A stretch of 64,000 bases of DNA from Pseudomonadota bacterium (GCA_021798335.1 JAJZMI010000050.1:1273-65272), one strand, 5' to 3'. Counted from the first letter of the stretch, positions 13,906 through 41,071 are shown. Notes: generated by a model from the letters alone, not told the origin. Numbers and translations are program-made.

Positions 13906-14965
13906 CGTAAGTACGTGACGCCCTCAAAACAGCTCTGCCTGTTTCCAGAATGCGGTGACGAGCGTGGTGCGTCGCTGCATCGAACGCAGGTTCCTTCGAG
14001 CGCACTGAGCCGGGTCGGTGAAGTTCGTCGCGCAGTAGTTGGGCATTGCGTGATCCTTGAGGTAACCCCAGATGCATTCGACGGGGTTCATTTCCGGGGC
14101 GTAAGCCGGCAGACGCTCGAGCACGATGCGGCCACGCTGAGCTTCCGCATGGGCGCGCACGAGCTTCGAGCGGTGGGCCTGCAGACCATCCCGGATGATC
14201 AGCAGCTTCTTGCCGATCGTCGCCTGCAGGGCTTTGAGAAACTCGGCGATCTGCGGACTCTTGATCGAGCCGTTGAACAGGCGAAAGTAGAAGTGCCAAT
14301 AGATGATCCCGGCAATTACCGACAGCTGCTTCCAGCTGAAGCGGTACTGCAGTACCGGCGTCTCACCCTTGGGAGCCCACGTTCTCGCGCGACAAGGTCT
14401 CTCGGACAGACCCGATTCGTCGATAAAGACGATTCCTCGGCCTTGTCGCGCAGCGATCGTTTTAGCGCCGGCTACCTCTTGGCTTTCCAGGTGCGAATCG
14501 CCCGCTCGGCCACTGCACGCTCCAGCCCAGCCGTCCGCGCAGCCGCCACACTGAGGAGGGGACCATCGAGACCGAGAACCTCTCCTCGATCAGCCGCGCA
14601 ATCCGGGGCAACGTCCACAGCTCCGTCGCGACCCCGGCGGCCATCGACCCTCCCTTCAGCAATCACACCAGTTCCTCCCGCTGCGATTCGGACAGCCGTT
14701 CCGGGCGCCCGAAGTGTACGGCGCGACGGAGCGCCGGCAGTCCTCCCTGTTGGCGCAGCCGCTCCCCGCGCTTCACCGTCTGGCGAGTTACGCCCACCTG
14801 ACGTGCAACTTCCGCTTGCGGCTGTCCCGCAGCCAACAGCCTCGCCCCGCGCCGTCGGCGTCGCTCTAGTTCCTTACGTTTCTCTACGTGCTTCATCAGT
14901 ACCCCGAATGTAACCATTCCAGGTACTTGGACCGCAGGAAGTCGAAAAAATGTCACCCATTTACG
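13906..14965 (-). mobile_element. Decayed IS630-family insertion sequence (transposase pseudogene)
   Basis: Imperfect terminal IRs CGTAAGTACGTGAC (13906-13919) and GTCACCCATTTACG (14952-14965). The transposase runs from ATG 14896 to stop 13924 but is broken three times: an in-frame TGA at 14663-14665, a frame change near 14530, and a TAG at 14472-14474. A CTAAAAC slippery-type site lies next to the TAG. The DDE C-terminal part reads IVFIDESGLSERP...YAPEMNPVECIWGYLK. Confidence 0.8.
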
Positions 14966-15082
14966 CACCTCTCAATAATAAGCACATATTATGCCAACGG
15001 TCGACGTCGGAGTGGTCTCCGGGATGAGCAGGCTCACGAATGGGAGTTCACACGCGTTGTGCGTTTCAAGAGAGCGCGGCTG

Positions 15083-17188
15083 ATGGAGTTACCACCCGTC
15101 CAGCTGGCCGGGCTCGCCATTCAGGAGGCCCCAGACGTGATGCTCTTCGTCGATGCTGGTTGGATCATCCGGTTTACCAATTGCCAAGTCACGGCCGGTT
15201 TCGGCTATGCGTCCGAGGAGCTGGTTGTCCTCGGCATCGAGCGCCTGGTGCTCGAGCGGGTTCGCCAACGCCGCATGGCCCGCCGCAGTGAATACTTGGC
15301 TCACATGCGTGTACGTGCGATGAGCACCGGTCTTGCAGGCTATGTAGTGCGGCACCACGGTACGGAGTTTCCCGTGGAGATCCAACTTAGCCTGATCAAG
15401 AACGGCACCGAAGCACTCGTCGCCGCGGCTATCCGTGATGCGAGTGATCGGGAACACGTTGCGGCTGACTTGAACGCACCGCTCGAAGACATGCAAAGCC
15501 TTTGCAAGATGAGCATGCAACTCATGAAGGTGACAGACCTATCGACGATTGTCGGCGAAATTCTTGACGCCATCGTTACCTTGCAGGCAGCCGATTTCGG
15601 GGAAATCCAGTTACGCGATCCGGAAACCGGCGCGCTTCAACTCGTGATGCAGCGGGGATTCTCGGCGAGCTTTCTCGATTGCTTCGCGAGCATTGATTCA
15701 GGTAATGAATCGGCATACGGCCGCTCCTTATCATCGGGCGAGCGCGTCGTCATCAAAGACGTGCAACCGGACAGTGAATATCTGCCGTTCCGCGCCATCG
15801 CGGCGCAGGAGGGGTATCGTGCGGTCCAGTTCGCTCGGATTCGCGGGCTCGACGGGGTACCAATAGGAATACTATCAACACATTTCCGTCAACCTCATCG
15901 GCCGTCAGAAAGAGAGCTGCAACTGACGGATCTGTATATGCATCTGGCCGCGACCCTGATCGCACGCGGTAGGGCCGACGAGGCGGCGCGGGCCGCACGC
16001 GATCTCGCCAACCGGGCGAATCAAGCCAAAAGCCGCTTTCTCGCCACTGCGAGCCACGACCTGCGCCAGCCGCTGCAGACAATCGCACTCCTGAACGGTG
16101 TGCTGCGCCGCACGATGCGCGACGAGGAATCGGGCCAGGCACTCTTTCAACAGGAACAGGCGATCGGGGCGATGGCGCGTCTGCTCAATGCCCTTCTGGA
16201 TATCAGTAAACTCGAGTCCGGGGCTGTGAGGCCAGAGCTCGGGGATTTCGCCGTCGCGACCCTGTTTGAGGAGCTGCGGCGTGATTTCGCCGGTATCGCC
16301 GCAGGGAAGGGTTTGTCGTTTGACATCGAGACTTGTCGCTGCTGCGTGCACAGCGATCCATCGCTCATCGAGCAGGTTCTGCGCAACCTCGTCGCTAACG
16401 CGATAAAGTACACTCTGCGCGGACGCGTGACATTAAATTGTCACGTCGTCAGCGACTCGAACATCCGTATCGACGTACTCGACACTGGCATTGGGATTCC
16501 CGAGGAAAAACTCGGCTACATCTACGACGAGTTCTACCAGATCGGCGTTGGATCCAATAGCGCGCGCGATAGCTACGGGCTCGGGCTATCGATCGTCAAG
16601 CGGATCGCAGATCTCCTCGGTCTCAAGCTCGAGGTGCGCTCACAGGTGGGAACGGGCTCGTGCTTCTCGGTCCTCCTTCCTCCTGCGCAGGGCCCGGTGG
16701 CCCTAGCGTCCCCGCGATCGGGAGAATCCGGACCGCTTGCCCAGTCTCCCGAAAGACGCAGGACGCTGAAGCTGCTCCTCGTGGAGGACGACCCGGGCGT
16801 GCAGGATGCCACACGGATGTTGCTGAAAGTGGCAGGCTACGATGTAACAGCCGTCTCCTCGCTCATGGATGCGCTCGCTGCGGCTTGTACCGGCGTAGAC
16901 CTGCTGGTGACCGACTACCATCTGGCCGGCGGGGAGACGGGCACTCAGGTCATCGCGGCACTTCGCAATACGCTCGGAACGTCACTGAAGACCGTGCTCG
17001 TCACCGGAGACACCTCCAGCGTGATCCGCGAGCTTCCCTGCGATCAGAATCTCCGCGTCGCCAGCAAGCCCCTCCACGCCGAGGAACTGTTGAGGCTCCT
17101 ACAATCGTTGATGGTTGCCGATAATCCCCCGGACGTTTCGGAGACCAACTCGGCTGCATTCGAGGCGTCCGCAAGGCCGACGCTGTGA
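15083..17188 (+). CDS. PAS-GAF hybrid sensor histidine kinase / response regulator
   Basis: ATG at 15083. The track start at 14888 would read across the IS630 end. Domains are PAS, GAF (ILDAIVTLQAADFGEIQL...), H-box ATASHDLRQPL, HATPase (DTGIGIP, GLGLSIV) and a C-terminal receiver (LLLVEDDPGV...DLLVTDYHL). Confidence 0.85.
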   Translation: MELPPVQLAGLAIQEAPDVMLFVDAGWIIRFTNCQVTAGFGYASEELVVLGIERLVLERVRQRRMARRSEYLAHMRVRAMSTGLAGYVVRHHGTEFPVEIQLSLIKNGTEALVAAAIRDASDREHVAADLNAPLEDMQSLCKMSMQLMKVTDLSTIVGEILDAIVTLQAADFGEIQLRDPETGALQLVMQRGFSASFLDCFASIDSGNESAYGRSLSSGERVVIKDVQPDSEYLPFRAIAAQEGYRAVQFARIRGLDGVPIGILSTHFRQPHRPSERELQLTDLYMHLAATLIARGRADEAARAARDLANRANQAKSRFLATASHDLRQPLQTIALLNGVLRRTMRDEESGQALFQQEQAIGAMARLLNALLDISKLESGAVRPELGDFAVATLFEELRRDFAGIAAGKGLSFDIETCRCCVHSDPSLIEQVLRNLVANAIKYTLRGRVTLNCHVVSDSNIRIDVLDTGIGIPEEKLGYIYDEFYQIGVGSNSARDSYGLGLSIVKRIADLLGLKLEVRSQVGTGSCFSVLLPPAQGPVALASPRSGESGPLAQSPERRRTLKLLLVEDDPGVQDATRMLLKVAGYDVTAVSSLMDALAAACTGVDLLVTDYHLAGGETGTQVIAALRNTLGTSLKTVLVTGDTSSVIRELPCDQNLRVASKPLHAEELLRLLQSLMVADNPPDVSETNSAAFEASARPTL

Positions 17189-25068: not shown

Positions 25069-25434
25069 TCACTCCTTCACCGCCGTCTTGTCCATCCCAT
25101 CGAGTGTGCGACTGACGGTCGCCACATCGGGCAGGCGCTTCAGCCCCAGCGTGCGCTTCACCATCGGGTCGTCCTGTTAGTAGCGCAGGTCCGAGAGCCA
25201 CCGGTAGCCGATCAGAAGATGCACGATCAGCAGCATCACGATCGAGGCGTGCCCGAAGATGGGGCTGACCGTCAGGTGATCGAAGCACCCGCGCAGCCGG
25301 CTCTTCAGCCCCAGGCGCTCGAACAAGGGTTGGAACACCACGAGACCTGCGAACGAGGTCATCTGCTGGTCCTCGAAACGGATCTCGGGCAGCGCGCGGG
25401 CTTTCCAATGCACGGCAGACTTGCTAACCTTCAT
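25069..25434 (-). pseudogene. IS1380-family transposase N-terminal remnant with an in-frame stop
   Basis: MKVSKSAVHWKARALPEIRFEDQQMTSFAGLVVFQPLFERLGLKSRLRGCF...LLIVHLLIGYRWLSDLRY-TAA-QDDPMVKRTLGLKRLPDVATVSRTLDGMDKTAVKE. The remnant is truncated after about 120 codons. Confidence 0.65.
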
Positions 25435-26004
25435 ACAGACGGTCGCCTCTCTTGTCTTGATCCTACGTGTAGTAACGCAGATCATAACAGAGTTGAGGCC
25501 GTCTTTTCGTTTCAAACAAACAGTTTTCGCGATCTCCAACGCTCACCCAAGGTGAGAGTTGCGGAACCGTTCAACCGGGCGTCTCAGGCTGGAGTTACAG
25601 GTGCCGATGCGTCGGCGAGCGACGTTTTATGCACCTGGCGGGTCTATACAGACAGCCGAACGCTACACCCCTGCTTCCGCTCGCGTTTTGACTACTTTGA
25701 TTCTAACTCTTGCGCAGGCCATCGAGTAAACGCTAGCACGGACGGGTGCTATCGACCCGCTTCTCTTGGCCCCTCCGGCGGGCTCTACCCGTCAAGCATC
25801 CGAACAAAGCCCCCTATCCAATAACCAGCGTTCCAAAACAAGTGCCGCGGCAATTGATCGAGGCTTGCTGATGAGACGCCTCGCTTTAAACCTGGCGACA
25901 TCCGTTTCGGCATGCCTATATGAGGCAATCTTCGTATCGCTGCTCATACCGCAGCAGGTAGCCGCTCGTCGCTCTTTTCTTGCTTCTGGCTGGAGCCATT
26001 GCAC

Positions 26005-27336
26005 TCAAGACTTCCCTTGCCTTTTCCCAACGCCTGTCTTTGCTCTTCTTGTTTTTGTCGCGGCTGCACGCCGACGCGTCAGCTCAATAACAACTGGACG
26101 GATATTCTGAATCTCCCTCACCATCCATTCCGCCACCTTATCGATGTTTCCATCTCCCAACAGCTCACTAACGCCGCGCACCGTAAATAATCCACTATCC
26201 ACGTCATGTTTCCATATTTTCCATGAATTGGGCAGATCCCTCTCAAGTTGTGATAAGTCCTTCGTGTTTTTTTGGACATCTACATTATCCCCTCCGTCGT
26301 ACACCGCGATATACCACAATACCTCGCCCGGTATTGAATGGCCGTGCTTACGCAAGTCAATGGCCCACGGCGACTCTGGCCAACATAGCCCCCATTCGAC
26401 GCACCAGTCCCTAAGATGACCCGAGCTTTTGAAGAAGCAGTAATCACATATCGATCCGGGGAGAGAAAAGCGCTCTTCAGTTTTGTCTACTATTGTCCTT
26501 TTCTCGGTAAGTTTCTTCAGTGCAGGCTTCAACCTACCACGAATTGCGCTAAAGGATGCCGCGATCCTCTCGGCATGTTCGCCGATGACGAATGGCTTGG
26601 CAGCATCCAGATTTTCAATTGTTATCGTTTCGGAGTTCATATTGTCTTCCTCGAGGAATTTTTCAAGTTGATTCGCGAGAAAGTATACGGATTGTGAATT
26701 TGACTTCGAATTCTTCTGACCGAGCTTCTTGAGCCACAAGAAAACCCGGCTCCATCGGCAGACGCTGGTGAACTCAACATGATATTTCTCTTCTTCATTA
26801 GAAATGAAGTCATCTGGGGGTTCAGTGAAATGCGTAAGAAGCACGAGCGCGCCGCGCCATTCTGGCGTTTTGCATTTCTCACTCAGCCACTGTCCATAAC
26901 GCACCAGCTGGTGGCGGTCTTTTATACGAAAACCTTTATCTTCTTCGGACGATGAACTGCGGCTGTGGGATTCACTGTAGCCCGCACGAATTTTCGCTTC
27001 GATGATTAACAGTGGGCCTTTTTCGTCATTGAGCACAATGTCGCATCGACCGGCCCCCTCGAGATTCTGTTGAGCCGACCATGTCAGTCGTGTTTCTGGC
27101 TGCCTTTCACACAGTCTTTTCCACGCGGCAGCCGAACTTTCGTCTAAGAATAGTTCCTCAATCGCATCCTTCATTTCTCTTGGCGTCAGCCTGTTCAGCA
27201 GGTCGGTTAATGCGCTAGTCAGGAAGTCCTCGAGCGGCTCGCGACCACGCTTTTCGCCCTTGGCCGCTGATCTGTCGTTGAAACGCGGACGATAAGGGAA
27301 GAGCGCGGAATAGAGCGACTGTTTTTCTTCTGACAT
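26005..27336 (-). CDS. PD-(D/E)xK nuclease-fold protein with an uncharacterised C-terminal half
   Basis: 443 aa. GRCDIVLNDEKGPLLIIEAKIRAG gives a D...ExK core followed by HQLVRY. GC is clearly lower than in neighbouring genes (hand-counted lines 37-52%). It lies 26 nt downstream of the preceding gene on the same strand. Confidence 0.6.
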   Translation of the reverse strand: MSEEKQSLYSALFPYRPRFNDRSAAKGEKRGREPLEDFLTSALTDLLNRLTPREMKDAIEELFLDESSAAAWKRLCERQPETRLTWSAQQNLEGAGRCDIVLNDEKGPLLIIEAKIRAGYSESHSRSSSSEEDKGFRIKDRHQLVRYGQWLSEKCKTPEWRGALVLLTHFTEPPDDFISNEEEKYHVEFTSVCRWSRVFLWLKKLGQKNSKSNSQSVYFLANQLEKFLEEDNMNSETITIENLDAAKPFVIGEHAERIAASFSAIRGRLKPALKKLTEKRTIVDKTEERFSLPGSICDYCFFKSSGHLRDWCVEWGLCWPESPWAIDLRKHGHSIPGEVLWYIAVYDGGDNVDVQKNTKDLSQLERDLPNSWKIWKHDVDSGLFTVRGVSELLGDGNIDKVAEWMVREIQNIRPVVIELTRRRAAATKTRRAKTGVGKRQGKS

Positions 27337-27362
27337 CTTGTACCCCCAGATCTGTCGAACTG

Positions 27363-28625
27363 TCAGGCTCCAATGAGCCTCCGGTGATCGGACGGTACCC
27401 TATCGCCAAGCAAATTCTTGTGCTTGACCCATTGAAATCCGCAGCTCTTGGAAAGGACGGCGACATCAACGGGACCCTGCACGGACTCCTTCATGTTGAT
27501 CGTGTGCCGGGCGAGGAAGATTTGCAGACTCACGAGTGTTTCCGCGAGCGCTGCCAAGGCCCCGCGGGGGAGCGCGGACACCGCGCGCATGAACGGATCG
27601 CTGCAAAGCATTTCGACTTTGTCGCGCAGCTTTTTGGCGAAATCTCGCGTCAGATCATCTGCGCCCGTGTGATCTTTGCTGCCTGACACGTACTCGCGGA
27701 GCATGTCCGGGACGGCCTGTTCCAGGTCAGGGTGAATGCCCCGGATCAGGGTGTCGATCGCATCCGTCTGGGCAAACGGTATGATCATGGCATCATCTTC
27801 CGGCGTGATGGTGCATTCCTTGAGTTTGTAGGTTCTGAACCGACCGCCGAGCAGGGGTGCGATCTGACATTGTACCAGAGAGGGGAATGGCACGGTTTCG
27901 CCTACGCCGCCAATGACCACGTTCGCTGTCCCGGGCCCGCCCCCGGCAGACGTGAGAAATAGACAAGCCGTCTTGCGTAATGCGGCGCGAACTTCTTCGT
28001 CGAGAAGATCGGCATCCGGGAAGACGTCCGCTTCGACCTGGTCTAATAGTCGGGCGTTGCCGCGTATGAGATCCTCGGCCCAGGCGGTATCGGCGCCCTC
28101 CCACGGGTCATGCTGTTCCCAGAGTGCCTGATCTTCGCGGATGAGACGAAGCAGAGTCTCGCGTGGATTACGGTCGACGAGTGGCGTCGGGGATAGTGGC
28201 CTGGACTTCGACGCCATGTCGTTGCTCGGTTGATCCGCAGCTTCCATCGCCTCGGCCAATGGCTTGGCGTACAGCGACTTCCACAGGCCCGTGATCTGGG
28301 ACTTCAGGGCATCCGCCTGGCGCTCCGGTGAAATAGCGAGAAAGGGTGTGCGCCGGAGATACCCCAGGAAGTCATCTACGCATTGCTGAACCGTGTCGAA
28401 TCTGCGGCCATCGAGCTTTCGGGAATAGTCGGCGATGATGACCTCCCAGGGCACGCCCTCATAGGTGGCCTCACCGAAGGTCATGATCCCCATCGGGGCT
28501 CCATTGCCGAGCTGAAAGAGCTTCTCCGCACTGTTGTAAACCTTGGCGCCATCGTCCAAGGACACCGCGCTGTCGGTCGCAAGGGCGATTCCCCAAAGAT
28601 TCATGACCGCGATTTCACAAGTCAT
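27363..28625 (-). CDS. Hypothetical 420-aa protein with an HslV/proteasome-beta-like (Ntn-hydrolase) signature and a large insertion
   Basis: The N-terminus M-TCEIAVMNLWGIALATDSAVSLDDGAKVYNSAEKLF places Thr1, Asp17 and Lys34 after Met removal. HslV and 20S beta subunits have T1/D17/K33. The C-terminal part has beta-subunit-like strands (ANVVIGGVGE..., GPVDVAVLSKSCGFQWV). About 150 acidic, helical residues are inserted between them. The start overlaps the upstream gene stop (ATGA, 28622-28625). Confidence 0.5.
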   Translation of the reverse strand: MTCEIAVMNLWGIALATDSAVSLDDGAKVYNSAEKLFQLGNGAPMGIMTFGEATYEGVPWEVIIADYSRKLDGRRFDTVQQCVDDFLGYLRRTPFLAISPERQADALKSQITGLWKSLYAKPLAEAMEAADQPSNDMASKSRPLSPTPLVDRNPRETLLRLIREDQALWEQHDPWEGADTAWAEDLIRGNARLLDQVEADVFPDADLLDEEVRAALRKTACLFLTSAGGGPGTANVVIGGVGETVPFPSLVQCQIAPLLGGRFRTYKLKECTITPEDDAMIIPFAQTDAIDTLIRGIHPDLEQAVPDMLREYVSGSKDHTGADDLTRDFAKKLRDKVEMLCSDPFMRAVSALPRGALAALAETLVSLQIFLARHTINMKESVQGPVDVAVLSKSCGFQWVKHKNLLGDRVPSDHRRLIGA

Positions 28626-30115
28626 GGCCGCTTTCCTCCCGATGTCGCTGTTCTGTGATCGGCCGATGACATGGAGAAATGTTCGGCGACCTTGACCATC
28701 GCCAGCGTGTCTCGTTCGCAGTAGGTAAGCAGCGAATGTCGAATGGAGGCGCGTTCCGCATCAGAGAGATTCTCGAACACCAGCCGCGAAAACGCCTGTT
28801 GAGCCATGGAACCGTCCGCGACGTCCAGGTCCGCATAATCGAGCTCCGGCGCAATGGTGGGCAGCACCGCCTTGATGGACCAGGAGCCCAGCATGTCGGG
28901 GTGATAGTAGTGCTCGCGCGCGAGCGGCAGCAGGTCCACCAGCCGATCGATGATCCGGCGGATACGCCCCGCATGGCTGGGGAGTGCTTCTGCCAGCTCG
29001 CTCAGGCGGGTCTGCTCGAAGGATTTGTTCCACACGAGAATGGGGCCCTGAGTGCCGAGGGTGGCCAGCAGCGCATTCGTAAAGGGAGGACGGGGATCGG
29101 CCGCGTCCTCGGCGAGGAATCCCTCGTGCCGCAGGCGACCCTCCGATTCCTGGACATGGCAGGACCATTGGAAGGGAATCTGCTGGTATGGCCGGGTGCC
29201 CGCCCAGATCGGGACGGAGGGGGCCCAGGTCTCGAAGTCCAGGAAATATCGGGGGTACGCCAGAGTACGGATGGTTCTGGCGAGTGCGGGGTCCAGGTAG
29301 GGCTTGCCGTTCACAGTCGCTTGCCAGACCCTGCGGTGCAGAGTGCTGGTCAGCCGCTCGGCGGGGACTTCGCGCAGATCGGTATACCCTTCCGCCTTGA
29401 GCTTCGCCGCAAGCTTGCCACCGCGAGGCAGGATGTCCACCGGATAGCCTTCGCGCTCGGGGATGCAGTGTGCCTGGAAGGGACACGGGAACGGGTCATG
29501 GCACTGACGCCCGGGCGCCACATCGGGCTCTTTGCGCCGCGCGAGGGTCCGCCGTGCGGCTGCGACCCAGCCCGGCACTTCGGGCATGCGCTCGGTCAGC
29601 TCCGTCACCACGTCCTGCTCGATCAGAAGCCCTTGATAGTGACCGTCTCCGGTGTAGATGAAGTCGCGATCGATGTAGGCAATCGCCTGTTCGCGTAGCG
29701 GAAGTCCGGCCCCCTGCAGCACCCAGCTTTGGACCGCGGCGTCCTCGAGGTGATACGCCTTGATCGAAGTGGACGACTTGACCTCTATCATGCGCCAGCC
29801 GCGCGCCACGGGGCGCAGGAGGTCGGTGCGCACCAGCACGCCGTCATGCTCGAAGGTGGCCTCGAACAGCGGGCGACGGGGCTTGACCGTCAGCGCCTGT
29901 GCGGTCTGACGCAGCGCCGAGCGTAGATCCTCGGCATCGATCAACACCCCATCGGCGTGCAGGTGCCGTGCGAGCAGACCGACCGTTGTGCCCGCCTCTG
30001 TGAGCGGTTGGCCCGTGGATTCATCAGCCAGCGCGGGGTTGTACACCTGCAGCCAGAGTCGTCTCGGACACTGGCGGTGGATCAGGATGCGGGACTTGGA
30101 TAGACCGTGGGTCAT
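28622..30115 (-). CDS. DUF2779-type protein: Cas4-like PD-(D/E)xK nuclease with a 4-Cys cluster plus a DEDD-like exonuclease domain
   Basis: ATG at 30115 (MTHGLSKSRILIHRQCPRRLWL). It has a nuclease core (RTDLL...RMIEVKSST), cysteines QC...CHDPFPCPFQAHC, then YFLDFETW...IPFQWSCH...YCERDTLAMV. This is the pattern I recall for the DUF2779 family. The track start at 30325 is an unsupported extension. Confidence 0.75.
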   Translation of the reverse strand: MTHGLSKSRILIHRQCPRRLWLQVYNPALADESTGQPLTEAGTTVGLLARHLHADGVLIDAEDLRSALRQTAQALTVKPRRPLFEATFEHDGVLVRTDLLRPVARGWRMIEVKSSTSIKAYHLEDAAVQSWVLQGAGLPLREQAIAYIDRDFIYTGDGHYQGLLIEQDVVTELTERMPEVPGWVAAARRTLARRKEPDVAPGRQCHDPFPCPFQAHCIPEREGYPVDILPRGGKLAAKLKAEGYTDLREVPAERLTSTLHRRVWQATVNGKPYLDPALARTIRTLAYPRYFLDFETWAPSVPIWAGTRPYQQIPFQWSCHVQESEGRLRHEGFLAEDAADPRPPFTNALLATLGTQGPILVWNKSFEQTRLSELAEALPSHAGRIRRIIDRLVDLLPLAREHYYHPDMLGSWSIKAVLPTIAPELDYADLDVADGSMAQQAFSRLVFENLSDAERASIRHSLLTYCERDTLAMVKVAEHFSMSSADHRTATSGGKRP

Positions 30116-30204
30116 GGGCCTCTCCCGGGACCGTGGGCGCGCGGCCAGATCGGTATAGGGGAACAATGGACGGCTGTTTGCTTCGGGGTGGACAGGAGGT
30201 GCAT

Positions 30205-31242
30205 TTAGGCTCTCCGGGCTCGTCGGTAGCGCGCGGCAGCTCGGGTCAGCGTGGCTTTCAACCGCTTCCGCAGCGTCCCGGGGGCAACCACCTCCGCGCC
30301 ATCCCCGAACGCACGCAGCCACCATTCCAGTTGCTGCGTATCCTGGACGGTGGCGGTGACGAGAACCTCTTCGTCGTTGAGATCCTTGATGACCTGGTCG
30401 CCGCTCAGAGGGGTTTCCTCGAGATGCGTCCTGACGCCTCGATGAAAAATCACCTTGAGCACTATGGTCCTGCCAGTGGCTTCTCCACTTGGATACTGGA
30501 ATGCACCGCCGCGAATGTATTCATCGAGATCGAATCCCTCGGGGCGCGTTGCCACCTTCTCCAGCAGCTTCGCGTGCCGCATGCGCTGCAGCGGCACATG
30601 GCGCGGATCCCCGTAGTTCCAGTACGTGCACACGAGGTAAAGCAGGTTTCCGCGCGCCACCAGGCCCAAGGGGTTGAACTCCTGCTCCTTCCATTCCTTC
30701 CCTCCGGCGCTACGGCTCAGGTAGTGGGCGGTGAATCGTTTGCCCATGAGCAATGCGTCGTACACCACCCGCGTAGCGGCCACGTCGATCTTCGGGGCCA
30801 ACAGGGGCATCTCGCGCGGTACGACGCGCACGCAGTCGATCCAGCGGCCGAGGCCCGCGGCGTCTGCGCTCTTCAACGTCTCCTCGGCCCGTTGGAAATA
30901 CCGCCTCAGCTCATCGCTCAGGGTCGGCGGCAGGAACTGCGGGGTGAATCGCTGTAGGAGGTTCAGCATCAACGCGGTCCTCTGATCCATCGCGGGCAGA
31001 TCGAGGATCTCCGCGCCCCGCTCCCAGGACCAGCCCCGGGCAATTCCGCGCCTCTCCCCATCCGAATGAATGGGAAAACCCCCACGGCCGGACAAGGTCT
31101 CGAGATCCCGCTGGATCTGCCGGCGGCTGATTCGGTAGCCCTTCGCATTGAGCGTACGGTGCAGGCTCTTCACATCGCTCTTGGCTGGGTGTCGGGGAAT
31201 TGCCCGCAGGAGCTGCAGGTGACGAAGGATCGCATCAGCCAT
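30205..31242 (-). CDS. WYL-domain transcriptional regulator (HTH-WYL-WCX, BrxR/CapW-like)
   Basis: ATG at 31242 (MADAILRHLQLLRAIPRHP... is a winged HTH). The WYL-type core reads FNPLGLVARGNLLYLVCTYWNYGDPRHVPLQRMRHAKL. A C-terminal extension follows (VTATVQDTQQLEWWLRAFGDGAEVVAP). Confidence 0.8.
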   Translation of the reverse strand: MADAILRHLQLLRAIPRHPAKSDVKSLHRTLNAKGYRISRRQIQRDLETLSGRGGFPIHSDGERRGIARGWSWERGAEILDLPAMDQRTALMLNLLQRFTPQFLPPTLSDELRRYFQRAEETLKSADAAGLGRWIDCVRVVPREMPLLAPKIDVAATRVVYDALLMGKRFTAHYLSRSAGGKEWKEQEFNPLGLVARGNLLYLVCTYWNYGDPRHVPLQRMRHAKLLEKVATRPEGFDLDEYIRGGAFQYPSGEATGRTIVLKVIFHRGVRTHLEETPLSGDQVIKDLNDEEVLVTATVQDTQQLEWWLRAFGDGAEVVAPGTLRKRLKATLTRAAARYRRARRA

Positions 31243-31296
31243 GGGCCCCTCGATGGATCGGATTTTTTCTTCATTGTAGCAGCGTACCTCGGGGGT

Positions 31297-31313
31297 GCGA
31301 CACGAGATGTCGC
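31297..31313. promoter_or_regulatory. Inverted repeat GCGACA-N5-TGTCGC in the divergent intergenic region; candidate WYL-regulator operator
   Basis: A perfect 6-N5-6 inverted repeat seen at 31297-31313, between the WYL gene (start 31242) and the divergent gene (start 31432). The functional assignment is inference only. Confidence 0.25.
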
Positions 31314-31431
31314 GCCCGAACGGTACCGTGTCCTTATGACGCAAGAGAACGCGGGCGCTCACCGAGAAGGGCGCTTCGAGGTGGCGCGAAACACTTCGAT
31401 CCCTTCAAGAACACTTGCTTCGGAGGTCGGT

Positions 31432-31764
31432 ATGAAACGAATTATCCCGTGGATGATTCGTCAGGGAGACGTCTTGATGATTGCGGTTGATGCGATTCCG
31501 AATGACGCGGTCGAACAGCCGCGCGATGAATCTGATCGCGTCGTGCTCGCGTACGGCGAAGCCACCGGTCACGGCCATGCGCTTCACGAGCCTGGGGTGG
31601 CGATGCTGCGTGCCGCGAACCAGGAGGTGTTCTTGCGAGTCCTGGAACCGTCAACTCTCGTGCACGAGGAACATGACCGCATTGCCATTCCGCCGGGGCT
31701 CTACCGGGTGGTGCGACAGAGGGAATGGTCCGACGCGGATGAACCGACCCGGGTGGCCGACTGA
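31432..31764 (+). CDS. Hypothetical 110-aa protein
   Basis: ATG at 31432 with GGAGGT 4 nt upstream. It reads MKRIIPWMIRQGDVLMIAVDAIP...VLAYGEATGHGHAL...LVHEEHDRIAIPPGLYRVVRQREW. I recall the pattern (QGDV...GE.TGH.H...HEEH...G.Y.V..QRE) from small phage or prophage proteins of unknown function. Confidence 0.6.
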   Translation: MKRIIPWMIRQGDVLMIAVDAIPNDAVEQPRDESDRVVLAYGEATGHGHALHEPGVAMLRAANQEVFLRVLEPSTLVHEEHDRIAIPPGLYRVVRQREWSDADEPTRVAD

Positions 31765-31765
31765 A

Positions 31766-33136
31766 ATGCGTGAGATCAATGAGTTGACGCCGGACCAGGA
31801 GGTCCAGCTAAAACGGGAAGCCGATCACTGGTTGGCCAACGGCAGGTCCGTCGAACCGTTGGATCGCAAAAGGGCCGCCGACGCGATTTGCGCGCTGTAC
31901 GCGGCCGTAAGGCGTCCCACACCGGCTGTGCTGTTCTTCTCTTCTCCCGCCAGGTGCATCTTGGCGCTGCGCGCGATGATCAAGCTCGGGACCGAGCGAC
32001 GTTTGCTGTGTGACTCGAGTCTGGAATTGCAATTGCAAGAGCAGCTGAGAGCACAACCGATTCCGAAAGGATGGTTGCAGCGCCAGAGGCAGGCCGCCGC
32101 GTCGATCGGGCTGCGGATCGAGTCGCAGCGGCGGTTAGGAACCTGGGCGCAGATCTGGGATGAATCCAGCACTCACTTCGGGTCACGAATCGATTCCCGG
32201 ATTGGTCCCTCGCTTTGGGTGCAGCTTGACTGCGCGCTGCGCTCGATGCTGTGGGAGCAGTTACGGTCCAGACTCTGGCGGTCAGTGCACAGAAAGCTCA
32301 ACGAGCAATTCCGGGAACCCGTAAGACAAGTACTTGAAACAGACTCCATGTCGCGGTCCATCCGATATGGGGAGGACCCACGCGACCTGAGACAAAGACT
32401 GCTCGACGTCAGGTATCAGGAATCTCACCTGGATCAGATTAAACTCGAGATCGGCATGCCCGGAGTTGAGGGTGTGCCGCGCGGCCTGAAGGCGGATATC
32501 TGGGAGCACTGCATGGGCGCCTGGTGGTGCGCTTCCGCGGTGTTCTATGACTTTTGCGCTCGCATCGGTATTTCGTACGCCCCCGAGCAAACGCGGATTC
32601 TTCGACTGTGGCTTGACCAGTGCCGCTATAGTCACTGGTGGTTCGAGTGCGATGGCATTGTGTTCGTGTCCCATCGCCCAACGGTACTGAAACTGGATTC
32701 TGGGGGCAGGTTGCACAACGAGCGCGGCGCCGCCCTCGAGTATGGGGACGGATTCCGGCTGTGTGCGATTCATGGCGTACAGGTCGAAGAGGATGATGTT
32801 CTGCATCCAGAGCGTATTACGGTCCGCCGAGTCGAGCAGGAGCGCAATGTCGAGTTGCGACGCGCCCTGACGTCGTTCTACGGACAGGCGCGGTACCTGA
32901 AAGACTCCGGAGCCACCCTCGTGCACCAAGATGAACGAGGGAAACTCTGGCGAAAGAAGCGGGAGGGAGATACCGATCTCGTCATGGTAGAGGTGACAAA
33001 TTCGACCCCGGAACCCAACGGGAACGCCCGGCCATACCTGCTGCGGGTCCCGCCCGACATGAAGACGGCCGCGGAGGCGGTCGCATGGACATTCAGCATG
33101 CGGTCGGACCAATACAACCCGGATATCGAGACGTAA
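31766..33136 (+). CDS. Hypothetical 456-aa Trp/Cys-rich protein (resembles the family I recall as DUF6745; unverified)
   Basis: ATG at 31766, one nucleotide after the TGA of the upstream gene. Conserved-looking blocks are GAWWCASAVFYDF, WWFECDGIVFVSHRP, LHNERGAALEYGDGF, VEQERNVELRRAL, VTNSTPEPNGNARPYLLRVPPDMKTAAEAVAWTF. The track start at 31481 overlaps the upstream gene. Confidence 0.6.
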   Translation: MREINELTPDQEVQLKREADHWLANGRSVEPLDRKRAADAICALYAAVRRPTPAVLFFSSPARCILALRAMIKLGTERRLLCDSSLELQLQEQLRAQPIPKGWLQRQRQAAASIGLRIESQRRLGTWAQIWDESSTHFGSRIDSRIGPSLWVQLDCALRSMLWEQLRSRLWRSVHRKLNEQFREPVRQVLETDSMSRSIRYGEDPRDLRQRLLDVRYQESHLDQIKLEIGMPGVEGVPRGLKADIWEHCMGAWWCASAVFYDFCARIGISYAPEQTRILRLWLDQCRYSHWWFECDGIVFVSHRPTVLKLDSGGRLHNERGAALEYGDGFRLCAIHGVQVEEDDVLHPERITVRRVEQERNVELRRALTSFYGQARYLKDSGATLVHQDERGKLWRKKREGDTDLVMVEVTNSTPEPNGNARPYLLRVPPDMKTAAEAVAWTFSMRSDQYNPDIET

Positions 33137-33533: not shown

Positions 33534-33878
33534 ATGCGCCGTCCGGAATCCAAATTCGCATCGCCTCAGGCACATTCGACTGCCGCTCGCCTCGGCAGCG
33601 CAATCCGCGCTGCTCGTCTAGCCCGCAAGGCTACCCAGCAAGAGCTGGCGGAACGCGCTCGCATGAGCGTTTTCACTTGGCAAAAAATCGAAAAGGGCGA
33701 TACCTCGGTTGCCATGGGTACCTGGCTTTCCGCCCTGGAGCAAACCGGGCTCCTCGGACATCTCGAACAGTTGGGTGAGCCCGAGCATGACAGGCTTGGC
33801 CAAGCGTTGCGCCAACAGCAATTGCGTGTGCGAGGCCGCCGCGGCAATGCCCAGTCCTCGATTGACTACGACTTCTGA
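33534..33878 (+). CDS. hipB: XRE-family HTH antitoxin (HipB-like)
   Basis: 114 aa. LGSAIRAARLARKATQQELAERARMSVFTWQKIEKG is a Cro/C1-type HTH. It lies immediately upstream of hipA. Confidence 0.8.
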   Translation: MRRPESKFASPQAHSTAARLGSAIRAARLARKATQQELAERARMSVFTWQKIEKGDTSVAMGTWLSALEQTGLLGHLEQLGEPEHDRLGQALRQQQLRVRGRRGNAQSSIDYDF

Positions 33879-33887
33879 GGAACGCTC

Positions 33888-35171
33888 ATGTCCTGGGATG
33901 GAATCGTCTTCATCCACCTGCCTGATCAGAGCGAGGCGGTTCCGGCGGGAAGAATCTCGCTGCTGGAGGAGGGGCTCCAGTCCATAGGTAGCACCTTCGG
34001 TTACGGTGCCCGATATCTGAAGCGGCCCAACGCGATACCCGTCGACCCTGTAAGTCTACCGCTGTCGAGCTTATCCGGCGAGGAGCAGCTTTATGAGCCG
34101 CCCGCCGGCCTCGCTCTGTTCGGTGCGATTCGTGATGCCACCCCCGATTTATGGGGTCGGCGTGTCATCGAAGCGAAGTTGAAGGTGCCGCCCAACTCTG
34201 TTCCGGAATCGACTTATCTCCTCAACGCCGGCACCCATCGCTTCGGTGCTCTGGATTTCCGAGAGAGCATCCGCTCCGCGAGCGCCGCGGGCTTGCTGCC
34301 ACCGCTTAACGACCTTCAGTACCTGTTGGAAGCCGCGGATCGCGTGCAACAAGGTCTGCCGATACCGACCCGACTGGAAATGCTCTTTCAGGTAGCCAGC
34401 CTGGGTGGGGCGCGGCCGAAAGCACTTGTGTCACATGATGGCAGGCAATTTCTCGCGAAATTCCCGGCCAAGAACGACCCATTCGACATCCCGGCCGTCG
34501 AGCGCGCCTGCCTGGAACTTGCGCGCGCGTCTGGACTGAATGTGCCGCAGACCGATCTGGTACGACTCGCAGACGGTCGGAATGTAATGCTGATCGAGCG
34601 ATTCGACCGGGCCGTTCTGCCAGATGGCAGCTTCTCCCGGAAGCACTGCGTAAGTGCTCTGACCCTGCTTGGCAAACACGAGCAGGAGTCCCCGGCCTCC
34701 AGTTACTCCGAGATCGCCCAGGTGATTTCCGATCGTGGAGTGTCCGGACACGTGCAAGAGGACCGTGCGGAGCTGTATGCGAGAGTTGCGTTCAATATCC
34801 TCATTTCGAATGACGACGACCACCTGCGAAATCACGCATTCATATGGCACCCGCCGGGCAAGGCTTGGCGACTGAGTCCGCTGTACGACGTGGTTCCCCG
34901 CCCGCAAGTATTCCACGAGCGACGATTGCATCTGTCGGTCGGCCCCCAAGGCAGGAACGCCACGCTCACAAACCTGTTCGAGGCACGCGGAAGTTTCGGC
35001 TTGCTGAAACCCGACGCAATCGCAATCATCGAGAGGGTCTCTGCGGCGGCGCGAGAATGGCGCACACACTTGGAATCGGCGGGTGTGAGCCCTGCGCAAT
35101 GCGACCTCGTTCAAAGTGCATTCCGTAGACCACAAGATATCGGTCTCGACGAGATAACGAAGACGCGGTAG
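33888..35171 (+). CDS. hipA: Type II toxin HipA-family Ser/Thr kinase
   Basis: 427 aa with HipA N-domain motifs (DATPDLWGRRVIE), LGGARPKALV, and the kinase core ILISNDDDHLRNHAFIW. Confidence 0.9.
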   Translation: MSWDGIVFIHLPDQSEAVPAGRISLLEEGLQSIGSTFGYGARYLKRPNAIPVDPVSLPLSSLSGEEQLYEPPAGLALFGAIRDATPDLWGRRVIEAKLKVPPNSVPESTYLLNAGTHRFGALDFRESIRSASAAGLLPPLNDLQYLLEAADRVQQGLPIPTRLEMLFQVASLGGARPKALVSHDGRQFLAKFPAKNDPFDIPAVERACLELARASGLNVPQTDLVRLADGRNVMLIERFDRAVLPDGSFSRKHCVSALTLLGKHEQESPASSYSEIAQVISDRGVSGHVQEDRAELYARVAFNILISNDDDHLRNHAFIWHPPGKAWRLSPLYDVVPRPQVFHERRLHLSVGPQGRNATLTNLFEARGSFGLLKPDAIAIIERVSAAAREWRTHLESAGVSPAQCDLVQSAFRRPQDIGLDEITKTR

Positions 35172-37814: not shown

Positions 37815-38900
37815 CTAGTGTAGTGCTTCATTCTGTTTGGAACTTAAGCGGCTATTTGCACGAATGACCTTTTGCAAGATATCGCGAGCGCTCTTGGTCC
37901 AAATGAATGGCTTGGGATTGGTATTGTGATGCGCGATGTAGTCATCGATGGCGGCGACCAATTCGGGCACGCTCGTGAACACACCGCGGCGCAGCCGTTC
38001 CACCGTGATGTCCCGAAAGAACCGCTCAACCATGTTCAACCACGAGGCCGAGGTCGGCGTGAAGTGCATGTGGATACGCGGTCGTTTCGCAAGCCACCGC
38101 TGCACGGCCGGATGCTTGTGGGTAGCGTAATTGTCGGCGATCAAATGCAATTCCTTGTCCGCCGGCGTTTCACGCTCGATCTGGCGCAGGAACTTCAGCC
38201 ACTCGATGTGGCGATGCCGCTGCTGACATTGGGCAATCACCTGTCCGTCGAGGACGTTGAGCGCCGCGAACAACGTGGTCGTCCCGTTGCGCTTGTAATC
38301 GTGCGTCATCGTCGCCGCGCGTCCCTTCTTCATCGGCAACCCAGGTTGCGTGCGATCCAGCGCCTGTACTTGACTCTTCTCATCACAGCACAAGACCAAC
38401 GCGTGATCCGGCGGGGACATGTACAGGCCGACGATGTCCTCGAGCTTCTCTACAAACTGCGGATCACGCGAGACCTTGAAGCCTCGCACCCGATGCGGCT
38501 TCAGCCCGTGCTGGCGCCACACCCGCAGCACCGTGGTGTCGCTGACGCCCACCTGCGCCGCCATCGAGCGCGTGCTCCATTGCGTGGCGTTGGCAGGCAA
38601 AGTCTGCGTCGTCAGTCGCACGATCTGCGCCGCGTCAACCTTCACCGGTCGCCCGCCGCGCGGCAAATCCTGCTCAATCGCCGCCAAGCCGCCCTCGATA
38701 TAGCGATTGCGCCAGCGTCCGACTTGAACACGACCAACGCCCACCTGGGCGGCAATCGTATGGTTGTCCAACCCGTCCGCCGCACCCAGTACGATCTGCG
38801 CGCGGCGCGCCAATCGAACACTGACCGTCTTGGATCGAGCCAGCTGCAGCAACTTCGCTCGCTCCTCGTTCAACAACACAATCTCCGCCGCTTTGCGCAT
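37815..38900 (-). CDS. IS630-family DDE transposase
   Basis: 361 aa with N-terminal HTH domains and a DDE core ([14 protein letters not shown]...[13 protein letters not shown]...[13 protein letters not shown]). Confidence 0.9.
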
Positions 38901-39238: not shown

Positions 39239-41071
39239 TCACTCCACCGTCACGCTCTTGGCGAGATTGCGCGGCTGATCGACGTCCGTGCCCTTCATGA
39301 TGGCGACGTGATAGGCGAGCAGCTGCAGGGGTATGGTGTACACGATGGGCGATTGGAAATAGCTCACGTGTCTGGGCATCTCGATGACGGTAACACCGTC
39401 GCTCGGCTGCAACCCCGATTCCGGATCGGCGAAGACGATGAGCTCGCCGCCGCGCGCCCGCACCTCCATCAGATTCGACTTCAGCTTTTCCAACAGGTCG
39501 TTGTTGGGTGCCACGGCAACCACGGGCATATCCGCGTCCACGAGCGCGAGCGGACCGTGCTTGAGCTCGCCGGCCGGATAGCTCTCGGCATGAATGTAGG
39601 AGATCTCCTTGAGCTTCAGTGCCCCTTCCATCGCGATGGGATACAGGCCACCGCGACCGAGGAACAAGGTGTGGTGCTTGTCGGCGAAGCGCTCGGCGAG
39701 TTTGTGGATGACGGGATCGAGCGTGAGCGCCTTCTCGACGAGCGCAGGCAGTTCCACCAGCCGCGTGACCAGACCCCGCTCGCGCTCGGCGTCGGCGCCC
39801 TGATGGCGGGCGAGGGCGATGGTCAGCATGGCGAGCGCGGTCAGCTGGGTCGTGAATGCCTTGGTCGAGGCGACGCCGATCTCGGGGCCGGCGCGCGTCA
39901 GCATCACCAGCTCCGACTCGCGCACCAGGGAGCTTTCCGGAGCGTTGCAGATGGCAAGCTGGGATAGATAACCCGATTGCCGGGCAAGGCGCAGCGCCGC
40001 CAGCGTATCGGCCGTCTCGCCGGACTGCGAGATCGTGACGAACAGCGAGTCGGGCGGCACCAGCGGATTGCGGTAGCGGTATTCGCTGGCGATGTCGACT
40101 GCACACGGAAGGCGGCAGATCTGCTCGATGAAATAGCGCACCACGGAAGCGGCATGATAGCTGGTGCCGCACGCGACGATGTGCACGCACCGCACACGCT
40201 TGAAGACCTCGGTGGCGGCCGGGCCGAACGCGGCCTCCAGCAGGCGGCCGTGGGCGACGCGCTCGGCGAGTGTGTCCGCGATGGCGCGCGGCTGCTCGTG
40301 GATTTCCTTGAGCATGAAATGGCGGTATGGACCCTTTTCCGCCGGATCGGCGCTGAGGTCACTTTCCCGAACCGGCCGCTCCGCAGCGCCGCCCTTGCGG
40401 TCGACGATGCGCACGCTGGTGCGCCGGATCTCGGCGACATCCCCCTCCTCGAGAAACATGAAGCGCCGCGTCACGGGCAACAGCGCTGCAACGTCGGAGG
40501 CGACGAAATTCTCCTCGACACCGAGGCCGATGACCACGGGGCACCCCTGGCGCGCCACGACCAGTCGCTGCGGGTCGTGGTCACTGATCACGGCGAGCGC
40601 ATAGGCACCTTGCAGCTCGGCGACGGTGGCTCGCACTGCTTCGAACAGATCCCGCAGGGTGTTCAAATGAAGATGAATGCGGTGCGCCACCACTTCGGTA
40701 TCGGTCTCCGAAGTGAACCGATAGCCGCGCTTCTCCAGATCGGCCCGGAGTGCTTCGTGGTTTTCGATGATGCCGTTGTGCACGACGGCTAATCCGTCCT
40801 GCGAGACGTGAGGATGCGCATTGCGCTCGCTGGGCACGCCATGTGTCGCCCAGCGCGTATGCGCAATCCCGGTGCCGCCGCCGATAGGCGTCGCGGCCAA
40901 GGCTTGCTCGAGCATTTTGACCTTGCCGACGGTACGCATGCGGGCCAACCTGCCCGAATGAATGACCGCCAGACCCGCGGAGTCGTAACCCCGATACTCG
41001 AGCCGCCGCAACCCTTCAATCAGCACCGGGACGATATTGCGCTCGGCGATTGCTCCGACGATTCCGCACAT
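39239..41071 (-). CDS. glmS: Glutamine--fructose-6-phosphate aminotransferase
   Basis: 610 aa. It starts [12 protein letters not shown] (N-terminal Cys nucleophile), has two SIS domains, and ends ...[15 protein letters not shown]. Confidence 0.97.

Follow-up and report, generated by a model that had tools for sequence, protein, structure and literature searches.

A WYL-headed cassette with two predicted nucleases and a proteasome-like protein as candidate defense cargo of a mobile island

Defense operons headed by a WYL-domain regulator are already known, and the locus described here is a variation on that theme of the WYL-headed defense-island operon. It is a cassette of four genes at positions 26005-31242 of a 64,000-nucleotide stretch of DNA from a Pseudomonadota bacterium (GCA_021798335.1; hereafter the window), in which a WYL regulator is followed by a DUF2779 nuclease, a proteasome-like protein (here called X) and a PD-(D/E)xK protein (here called D). 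Regulators of the winged helix-turn-helix (wHTH)-WYL-WCX family bind single-stranded DNA (ssDNA) (PMC11662680, PMC13004042). One of them, DriD, is activated by ssDNA and binds the palindrome ATACGAC-N7-GTCGTAT, which in its target promoters takes the −35 position in place of a −35 element; its regulon contains nucleases and repair genes, namely bapE, recJ and dnaG (PMC13004042). CapW, a repressor of the same regulator family, senses ssDNA as well (PMC11662680).

Comparison of the window with these systems, and with related loci in other contigs and genomes (labeled L004, L012 and so on), favors reading the cassette as a mosaic operon carried as cargo by a mobile island, induced by ssDNA or DNA damage and most likely directed against phages or plasmids, a reading to which we give about an even chance. 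Gene content, folds, catalytic residues, the operator and the patterns of co-occurrence were all computed in the present study. They confirm the four genes as a sequence-only reading had observed them, together with all of its domain calls (WYL, DUF2779, proteasome-like, PD-(D/E)xK), and partly support its interpretation of the locus as a defense cassette, a role in phage defense being plausible. None of the named multi-gene systems in PADLOC-DB v2.0 matched the cassette, which returned only a generic WYL match, a weak Cas4 match and a weak PDC-S26 match, and none was found in the searched literature; the earlier view that no named system corresponds to the locus stands to that extent, qualified by the finding that D is a distant relative of the cataloged candidate PDC-S26.

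The recurring unit, its regulator and its operator

Open reading frame (ORF) calling places all four genes on the minus strand, in the order WYL regulator (30205-31242), DUF2779 (28622-30115), X (27363-28625, 420 residues) and D (26005-27336), exactly as previously read. The spacing is likewise present in the sequence: 89 nt separate the WYL and DUF2779 genes, the DUF2779 and X genes overlap through an ATGA with a GGAGGA ribosome-binding site upstream of it, and 26 nt lie between X and D. The overlap, the ribosome-binding site and the short gaps bear out the tight packing as one operon, within which a generic sigma-70 scan detected no promoter-like site and terminators are not in excess. The shorter start codons picked in the sequence-only reading prove right, since homologues begin at identical residues and the longer WYL ORF, which starts at a GTG, would take in the conserved promoter and operator. 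An exact-sequence search assigns the contig to a metagenome-assembled genome of the Steroidobacteraceae, and the proteins carry the NCBI names ‘hypothetical’, ‘DUF2779 domain-containing’, ‘helix-turn-helix transcriptional regulator’ (YafY) and, for a divergent gene treated below, ‘DUF6745 domain-containing’.

The regulator contains the Pfam WYL (1.2e-9, 38.4 bits against a cut-off of 21.8) and WCX (7.4e-15, 55.5 bits against a cut-off of 23.9) domains, with an N-terminus that matches HTH_11 under the cut-off of 25 (E 0.039, 14.3 bits), and is 66-82% identical across L004, L012, L013 and L182. Its best PDB matches are the DriD entries 7u02, 7tzv, 9pfq and 8tp8 (E ~1e-9), the homology spanning residues 178-335. 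From these matches, the regulator is predicted to be of the wHTH-WYL-WCX type and is more DriD-like than BrxR- or CapW-like. The comparison with the BrxR/CapW type drawn in the sequence-only reading did not hold up: neither protein was matched in the PDB at E<0.01, and DriD was matched instead.

Upstream of the regulator gene, a palindromic operator, GCGCGAC-ATCTCGT-GTCGCAC (31295-31315, minus strand), overlaps the −35 position of the WYL operon promoter, a placement that follows from its lying 16 nt upstream of the −10 element TACAAT (31273-31278, minus strand), itself ~30 nt upstream of the WYL ATG. In an alignment of the window, L004, L012 and L013, the arms of the palindrome are conserved and the spacer is variable, giving the consensus GTGCGAC-N7-GTCGCAC, from which the window copy departs by one mismatch; TACAAT is invariant in the same four loci. 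The palindrome was also recovered by an inverted-repeat search, and the generic sigma-70 scan missed TACAAT because the promoter lacks a −35 consensus. Operator and DriD box share an identical CGAC-N7-GTCG core, identical spacing and an equivalent promoter position, and the palindrome is predicted to be the binding site of the WYL protein in its own promoter. Since operator and regulator are DriD-like, and DriD and CapW respond to ssDNA, induction by ssDNA is, by analogy, the most likely control of the operon. The match to the DriD box ties a regulator type of the chromosomal DNA-damage response to cargo of a mobile island and permits a direct binding assay.

Divergent from the WYL gene are encoded a 110-residue protein, s110 (31432-31764, plus strand; phrog_27831, 1.5e-12), and, immediately after it, a 456-residue DUF6745 protein (31766-33136, plus strand; PF20530, 1.5e-55). 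Both occupy the same position in L004, L012, L013 and L182, where s110 is 74-80% identical. The pair is present in each of the five cassette loci whose sequence extends to this side of WYL, and the conserved unit therefore reaches beyond 26005-31242. Neither protein has a PADLOC or a PDB match, and the searched literature held no relevant paper on DUF6745.

All four cassette genes are present in L004/L005 and in L012 (X 74-78% identical), so that the independent cassette loci containing X are the window, L004 and L012. L013 and L182/L183 keep WYL-DUF2779-D without X; in L184, whose contig ends inside DUF2779, the DUF2779 gene overlaps D by 4 nt, again without X. The recurring unit is s110-DUF6745 divergent from WYL-DUF2779-D, with or without X, and not the fixed four-gene system that had been proposed; the four-gene unit is conserved in close relatives only. 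Co-occurrence of the genes in other genomes stands for these relatives and fails in the wider X family, where the surroundings of X relatives, at 80 loci in genomes and 83 in viruses, contained no WYL or DUF2779 gene. Of the ten distinct D loci, eight show a link to DUF2779 or X; D lies upstream of DUF2779 in L111 and stands alone in L014 and L186. Independent support for the X-D link comes from L015 (10001-12708), a Deltaproteobacteria metagenome-assembled genome, in which an isolated X gene precedes a D-like gene, their products sharing 38% and 29% identity with those of the window, and the pair is inserted between a short-chain dehydrogenase gene and DUF1326/copper-chaperone genes. Several of these loci bear out the mobile, defense-type setting ascribed to the cassette: L013 adjoins GmrSD and DUF499, L012 is part of a conjugative element, and AbiE is found close to L184.

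Nucleases, the proteasome-like protein and the island

The DUF2779 protein matches PF11074 (1.4e-44, 151.8 bits against a cut-off of 23.3) and has no PDB sequence match. Its N-terminal half is Cas4-like (PADLOC Cas4, 1.2e-6) and its C-terminal half RNase-H/DEDD-like (RNase_H_2, 0.0056). Across nine homologues, C16, C205, C211, C217, D98, E111 and K113 are invariant, as are the DFET and YCxxD motifs. The protein is predicted to be a Cas4-like PD-(D/E)xK nuclease with a four-cysteine cluster, joined to a DEDD-type 3'-5' exonuclease, with the catalytic residues intact; the family matches and invariant residues thus sustain the earlier call of a Cas4-like nuclease plus exonuclease. This domain analysis agrees with published sequence analyses, where the family is uncharacterized (PMC3985635, PMC13621843) and its DEDD half is found to resemble the mitomycin-repair exonuclease MrfB (PMC13621843).

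Genomic neighborhood analysis links DUF2779 to WYL outside the cassette as well. Among 80 metagenomic DUF2779 loci, 27 have a WYL gene immediately next to DUF2779 and in the same direction, and 36 have one within ~4 kb, counts that are lower bounds because many contigs are short; X occurs in none of these loci and D in one. On plasmids, the DUF2779-WYL pair is preceded by an IetA-like double AAA+ protein of ~700 residues, and an IetA-like AAA+ protein accompanies the pair on a Diaphorobacter plasmid (L098, 2733-7467). The 95 neighbors of 28 such pairs include IetA-like AAA+ proteins (12), PDC-S26 (3, best 8.5e-82) and GmrSD-like proteins (3), as well as PDC-M27C, ZacC and DrmD. A Rhodoferax plasmid (L099, 2848-10837) carries, in order, the IetA-like double AAA+ protein, DUF2779, WYL, PDC-M27A (2e-182), PDC-M27B (1e-242) and a DEAD/DEAH helicase, and the pair may be an overlooked part or regulator of PDC-M27-type loci. 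Given its frequent adjacency and its varying neighbors across loci, the DUF2779-WYL pair behaves like a conserved front end to which differing, defense-flavored cargo is attached. The frequent pairing was not found in the searched literature; at 27 of 80 loci, it provides a first contextual lead on DUF2779 function, and a nuclease coupled to a regulator that senses ssDNA points to a sensor that amplifies its own signal.

X has no Pfam or NCBIfam match at E<=0.1 and no PADLOC match, and PDB sequences yielded only chance-level matches to unrelated proteins (E>=0.69). Its AlphaFold model, a monomer, has a predicted local distance difference test score (pLDDT) of 84.7 and a predicted template modeling score (pTM) of 0.82. 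Structurally, Foldseek matched this model to 20S proteasome beta subunits (8u7u_K, 1ryp_K) and to Anbu (5nyw), with probability 1.0, E 2e-4 and template modeling (TM) scores of 0.46-0.55 on the target (best 0.55). An alignment of 33 X sequences contains invariant N9, A16, D18, A20, K35, G240, G242 and D387 and nearly invariant M1, T2, E4 and S19. Alignment conservation, notably of T2, D18 and K35, and the modeled fold thus support the earlier description of X as proteasome-like with Thr2, and X is predicted to be an N-terminal-threonine hydrolase of the proteasome-beta fold with two large helical insertions. Judged by sequence, it is outside every known proteasome family; an hhalign comparison of the X family with Escherichia coli HslV covered the first 25 residues only, at a probability of 2%, and the register of T2 and D18 with HslV is taken from this weak match only.

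The family to which X belongs (phrog_5990, 3e-59) is large. An exhaustive profile search returned 6,688 cluster representatives, of which 3,922 reach E<=1e-30, where a word-indexed search had pointed to a rare family of 40 proteins, and the family members listed align nearly always from residue 1. Relatives number at least 552 in GTDB species genomes, across many bacterial and archaeal phyla, and 229 in IMG/VR, and the X module is also found on plasmids. In the lambdoid Providencia phage PSTRCR_117lys (L096, 4001-5475; MW358929.1, 37186-38660), X lies between Dam/Q and holin; in a Stenotrophomonas phage it adjoins lysis genes; and in Streptococcus prophages and satellites, such as satellite Javan103 (L095, 4001-5380), it occupies the extreme end. 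The family thus populates prophage moron slots, satellites, bacteria and archaea, normally as a two-gene module with a partner of ~55 residues.

This partner is highly charged (consensus KKKKEKVFRSMEEFEKEYFPKSFEEKKLKESEDPETLGEKLAKESLEKIRKQLR). A small co-directional ORF lies immediately downstream of X in 59 of 91 loci, and a profile built from 13 small partner ORFs found 43 matches among 8,797 small ORFs, all 43 directly downstream of X. Viral X loci have a small downstream ORF in 77 of 83 cases, of which only five match the partner profile. BLAST clustering of X neighbors left the small downstream ORF as the sole conserved neighbor; a conserved large partner was also sought and rejected, no family occurring in more than three loci in a census of 144 nearest neighbors. 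The X of the window and its subclade (>~32% identity) are without the small partner and lie beside WYL regulators (L004, L006, L008, L012) or beside D (L015). A separate arrangement is seen in L006 (3071-8279) and L007, where an X homologue 37% identical to that of the window shares an operon with a DUF5925-AAA ATPase gene and ADP-ribosylglycohydrolase genes; a WYL regulator is encoded in the opposite direction, and a Trb-type conjugative element surrounds the operon. This pairing of a proteasome-like protein with an AAA+ protein recalls HslUV.

Tentatively, and with a probability that we place well short of even, X defines a new and widespread family of N-terminal-threonine hydrolases resembling the proteasome that, with its ~55-residue partner, forms a mobile immunity or exclusion module and has here been recruited as a protease effector or regulator into a WYL/DUF2779/nuclease operon. 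If so, the DUF2779-WYL pair would serve varied defense cargo as a general front end that both generates and senses an ssDNA signal. The family is large, has an intact Thr/Asp/Lys center and is without a Pfam model; no literature on it was found, nor did the searched literature hold a relevant paper on proteasome-like or N-terminal nucleophile hydrolases in defense. It would bring a threonine-protease type of effector into prokaryotic conflict systems and extend the few known prokaryotic proteasome homologues by a new branch. Of the two leads, the X family is the more interesting, with the DUF2779-WYL pairing second.

D retains D99, E113 and K115, together with Q143xxxY147, as invariant residues in 15 sequences, which bears out its identification as a PD-(D/E)xK protein. 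Its profile matches are sub-threshold, both to PDDEXK_4 (0.011, 16.1 bits, under the cut-off of 22.3) and to PADLOC PDC-S26 (3.8e-5, residues 43-119 only), and hhalign against a bona fide PDC-S26 protein gave E 1.2e-4 at a probability of 55%. Sequence comparison with solved structures gave nothing meaningful, and the best Foldseek matches of the structural model (pLDDT 74.6) are weak, namely McrC (E 6e-3) and NucS (E 0.6). D is predicted to be a nuclease of the PD-(D/E)xK type that also has a QxxxY motif and ends in an alpha/beta domain, and to be distantly related to PDC-S26. We take the ‘S’ of that PADLOC name to mean single-gene; in the searched literature PDC-S26 appears only within a list.

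The family formed by D is small and distinct, with 16 clusters. Its gene has a GC content of 49.7% (53% at third codon positions, GC3) against 64.7% (GC3 77%) for DUF2779 and 64% for the contig, and D is 41-46% identical between cassettes whose other genes share 72-84%. This low identity among similar cassettes and the foreign composition suggest that D is a swapped allele or is evolving fast. Two further ideas about D were dropped: that phages or plasmids carry D or the entire cassette, since searches of PLSDB and IMG/VR returned no D match, and that the N-terminus of D is a fused small partner of X, since the partner profile matches nothing in the D family.

The cassette lies downstream of glmS (39239-41071, minus strand, from the ORF and domain scan). 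An IS630-type transposase gene (DDE_3; 37815-38900, minus strand) is found just downstream of glmS and a DDE_Tnp_1_4 transposase fragment (25177-25539, minus strand) at the other island end, in keeping with the insertion-sequence debris reported near the cassette. Of the attTn7 island described in the sequence-only reading, only ‘island downstream of glmS’ stands: Tns families are absent among the scanned glmS-downstream ORFs and one upstream ORF, the small ORFs at 35.2-37.8 kb being scanned in part, and a Tn7 element was therefore dropped. The ORFs scanned on the glmS-downstream side encode IS630, hipBA, a P-type ATPase and chemotaxis/kinase proteins. The hipBA genes said to adjoin the cassette are indeed present (33534-35171, plus strand), as a hipB-like helix-turn-helix gene of 114 residues and a hipA (HipA_C, 5.5e-48) directly beside the conserved unit, and MazE-like genes also occur in the neighborhood. 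A HipA gene likewise lies near DUF2779 on a Croceicoccus plasmid (L100). Elsewhere, the window encodes a large 856-residue fusion of CheB methylesterase, CheR methyltransferase and PAS domains (8526-11096, minus strand) and a GAF-histidine kinase-receiver hybrid (14888-17188).

A proposed mechanism and its rivals

In the mechanism that we infer, with its inducer, direction of regulation, substrates and role in defense, the DriD-like wHTH-WYL-WCX regulator would sit on the conserved palindrome that overlaps −35 in its own promoter, and ssDNA in the WYL domain, arising from DNA damage or from invading or replicating foreign DNA, would raise transcription. DUF2779, as a Cas4-like 5'-3' and DEDD 3'-5' nuclease, would resect DNA ends, destroying linear invader DNA, and this resection may yield further ssDNA signal. 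D and X would be effectors added downstream in this lineage, D as a PDC-S26-type nuclease and X as a protein taken from a separate two-gene phage or satellite module, here without its usual ~55-residue partner. As a protease, X might damage the infected cell or the invader, or it might control D.

Defense is favored because of the mobile and defense-type contexts, the link to PDC-S26, the phage or satellite origin of X and the foreign, fast-changing allele of D. Several points weigh on the other side. The functions of the components are predicted from sequence and modeled structures, the fold match of D is weak, and the sequence is compatible with activation as well as with relief of repression. 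The nearest large neighbors of X (144 proteins) are mostly ordinary metabolic genes with scattered defense matches, and the components, given their largely independent distributions, may not cooperate. DriD and PafBC control DNA-damage responses, not immunity. This, together with the quasi-essentiality of DUF2779 in the minimal Mycoplasma JCVI-syn3.0 (PMC13621843), makes a repair role possible.

The main rivals of the defense reading are accordingly a repair module and a set of independent neighbors. As a DNA-damage response or repair module carried on mobile elements, the cassette would have an ssDNA-sensing regulator that induces the repair or processing nucleases DUF2779 and D, with no role in immunity. 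Such a module fits the DriD entries as closest solved relatives, the DriD-like operator, the nucleases and repair genes of the DriD regulon (PMC13004042), and the MrfB-like DEDD half and quasi-essentiality of DUF2779 (PMC13621843). It fits less well with the mobile, variable location of the cassette, the enrichment of defense candidates beside DUF2779-WYL pairs, the relationship of D to PDC-S26 and the descent of X from a phage/satellite moron family; the foreign composition of D and its divergence between otherwise similar cassettes also suit conflict genes better. We regard a repair module as unlikely, and only a little less so the possibility that the WYL-DUF2779 pair, X, and D as a PDC-S26-like single-gene candidate are independent units sharing a compact island. 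More than 160 loci do have X by itself or next to its small partner, L014 and L186 contain a solitary D, and DUF2779-WYL is found with quite different cargo. Yet the ATGA overlap couples the translation of DUF2779 and X, as the overlap in L184 does for DUF2779 and D, the cassette interior has no promoter-like site, D keeps its link to DUF2779 or X in most of its loci, and the X of the window is without the partner that it has elsewhere.

Far less probable than either is that X and D, or X and its small partner, form an addiction or toxin-antitoxin-like pair that stabilizes the mobile element rather than conferring immunity. In its canonical two-gene form X has a tiny, fast-evolving partner, hipBA and MazE-like genes lie nearby, and the X module is present on plasmids, but no toxin-like domain is recognized in the components, and the prophage moron slots and satellite ends that X occupies are typical of exclusion and defense genes. 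This explanation also overlaps with that of mobile defense cargo, since many toxin-antitoxin modules also defend.

Comparison with known systems

Set beside the described regulators, the window WYL protein shares with DriD of Caulobacter the WYL and WCX domains and a CGAC-N7-GTCG palindrome over the −35 of a promoter without −35 consensus; DriD itself is encoded on the chromosome and activates a DNA-damage regulon, and the genes regulated here differ. CapW and BrxR resemble it in another respect, the window WYL gene too heading a mobile, defense-type operon, but both are repressors, their regulated genes are different, and neither gave a PDB match at E<0.01.

The two nucleases show a similar mixture of shared cores and altered context. 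D has the PD-(D/E)xK core in common with PDC-S26 (PDDEXK_4), and true PDC-S26 genes adjoin DUF2779 or DUF2779-WYL in L101 and in 3 of the 28 pairs, while PDC-M27A and PDC-M27B follow DUF2779-WYL in L099. However, D itself stays sub-threshold, and the PDC entries are candidates without DUF2779, WYL or X. Like Cas4/AddB-type nucleases and DEDDh exonucleases such as MrfB, DUF2779 retains the cysteine quartet together with the D/ExK and DEDD motifs (cf. PMC13621843), but it fuses both domains in one protein, and its gene is without CRISPR linkage.

X shares its fold with HslV, Anbu, BPH and the 20S beta subunits and, like HslV, has a Thr right after the initiator Met; D18 and K35, the equivalents of Asp17 and Lys33 of known proteasome homologues, are invariant. 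Unlike these proteins, X is about twice the size, contains two helical insertions and has no Pfam Proteasome match. It also differs from the known bacterial proteasome homologues in usually being without an adjacent ATPase (AAA+ only in L006, AAA_28 in L002), and in being carried by phages, satellites and islands together with a partner of ~55 residues.

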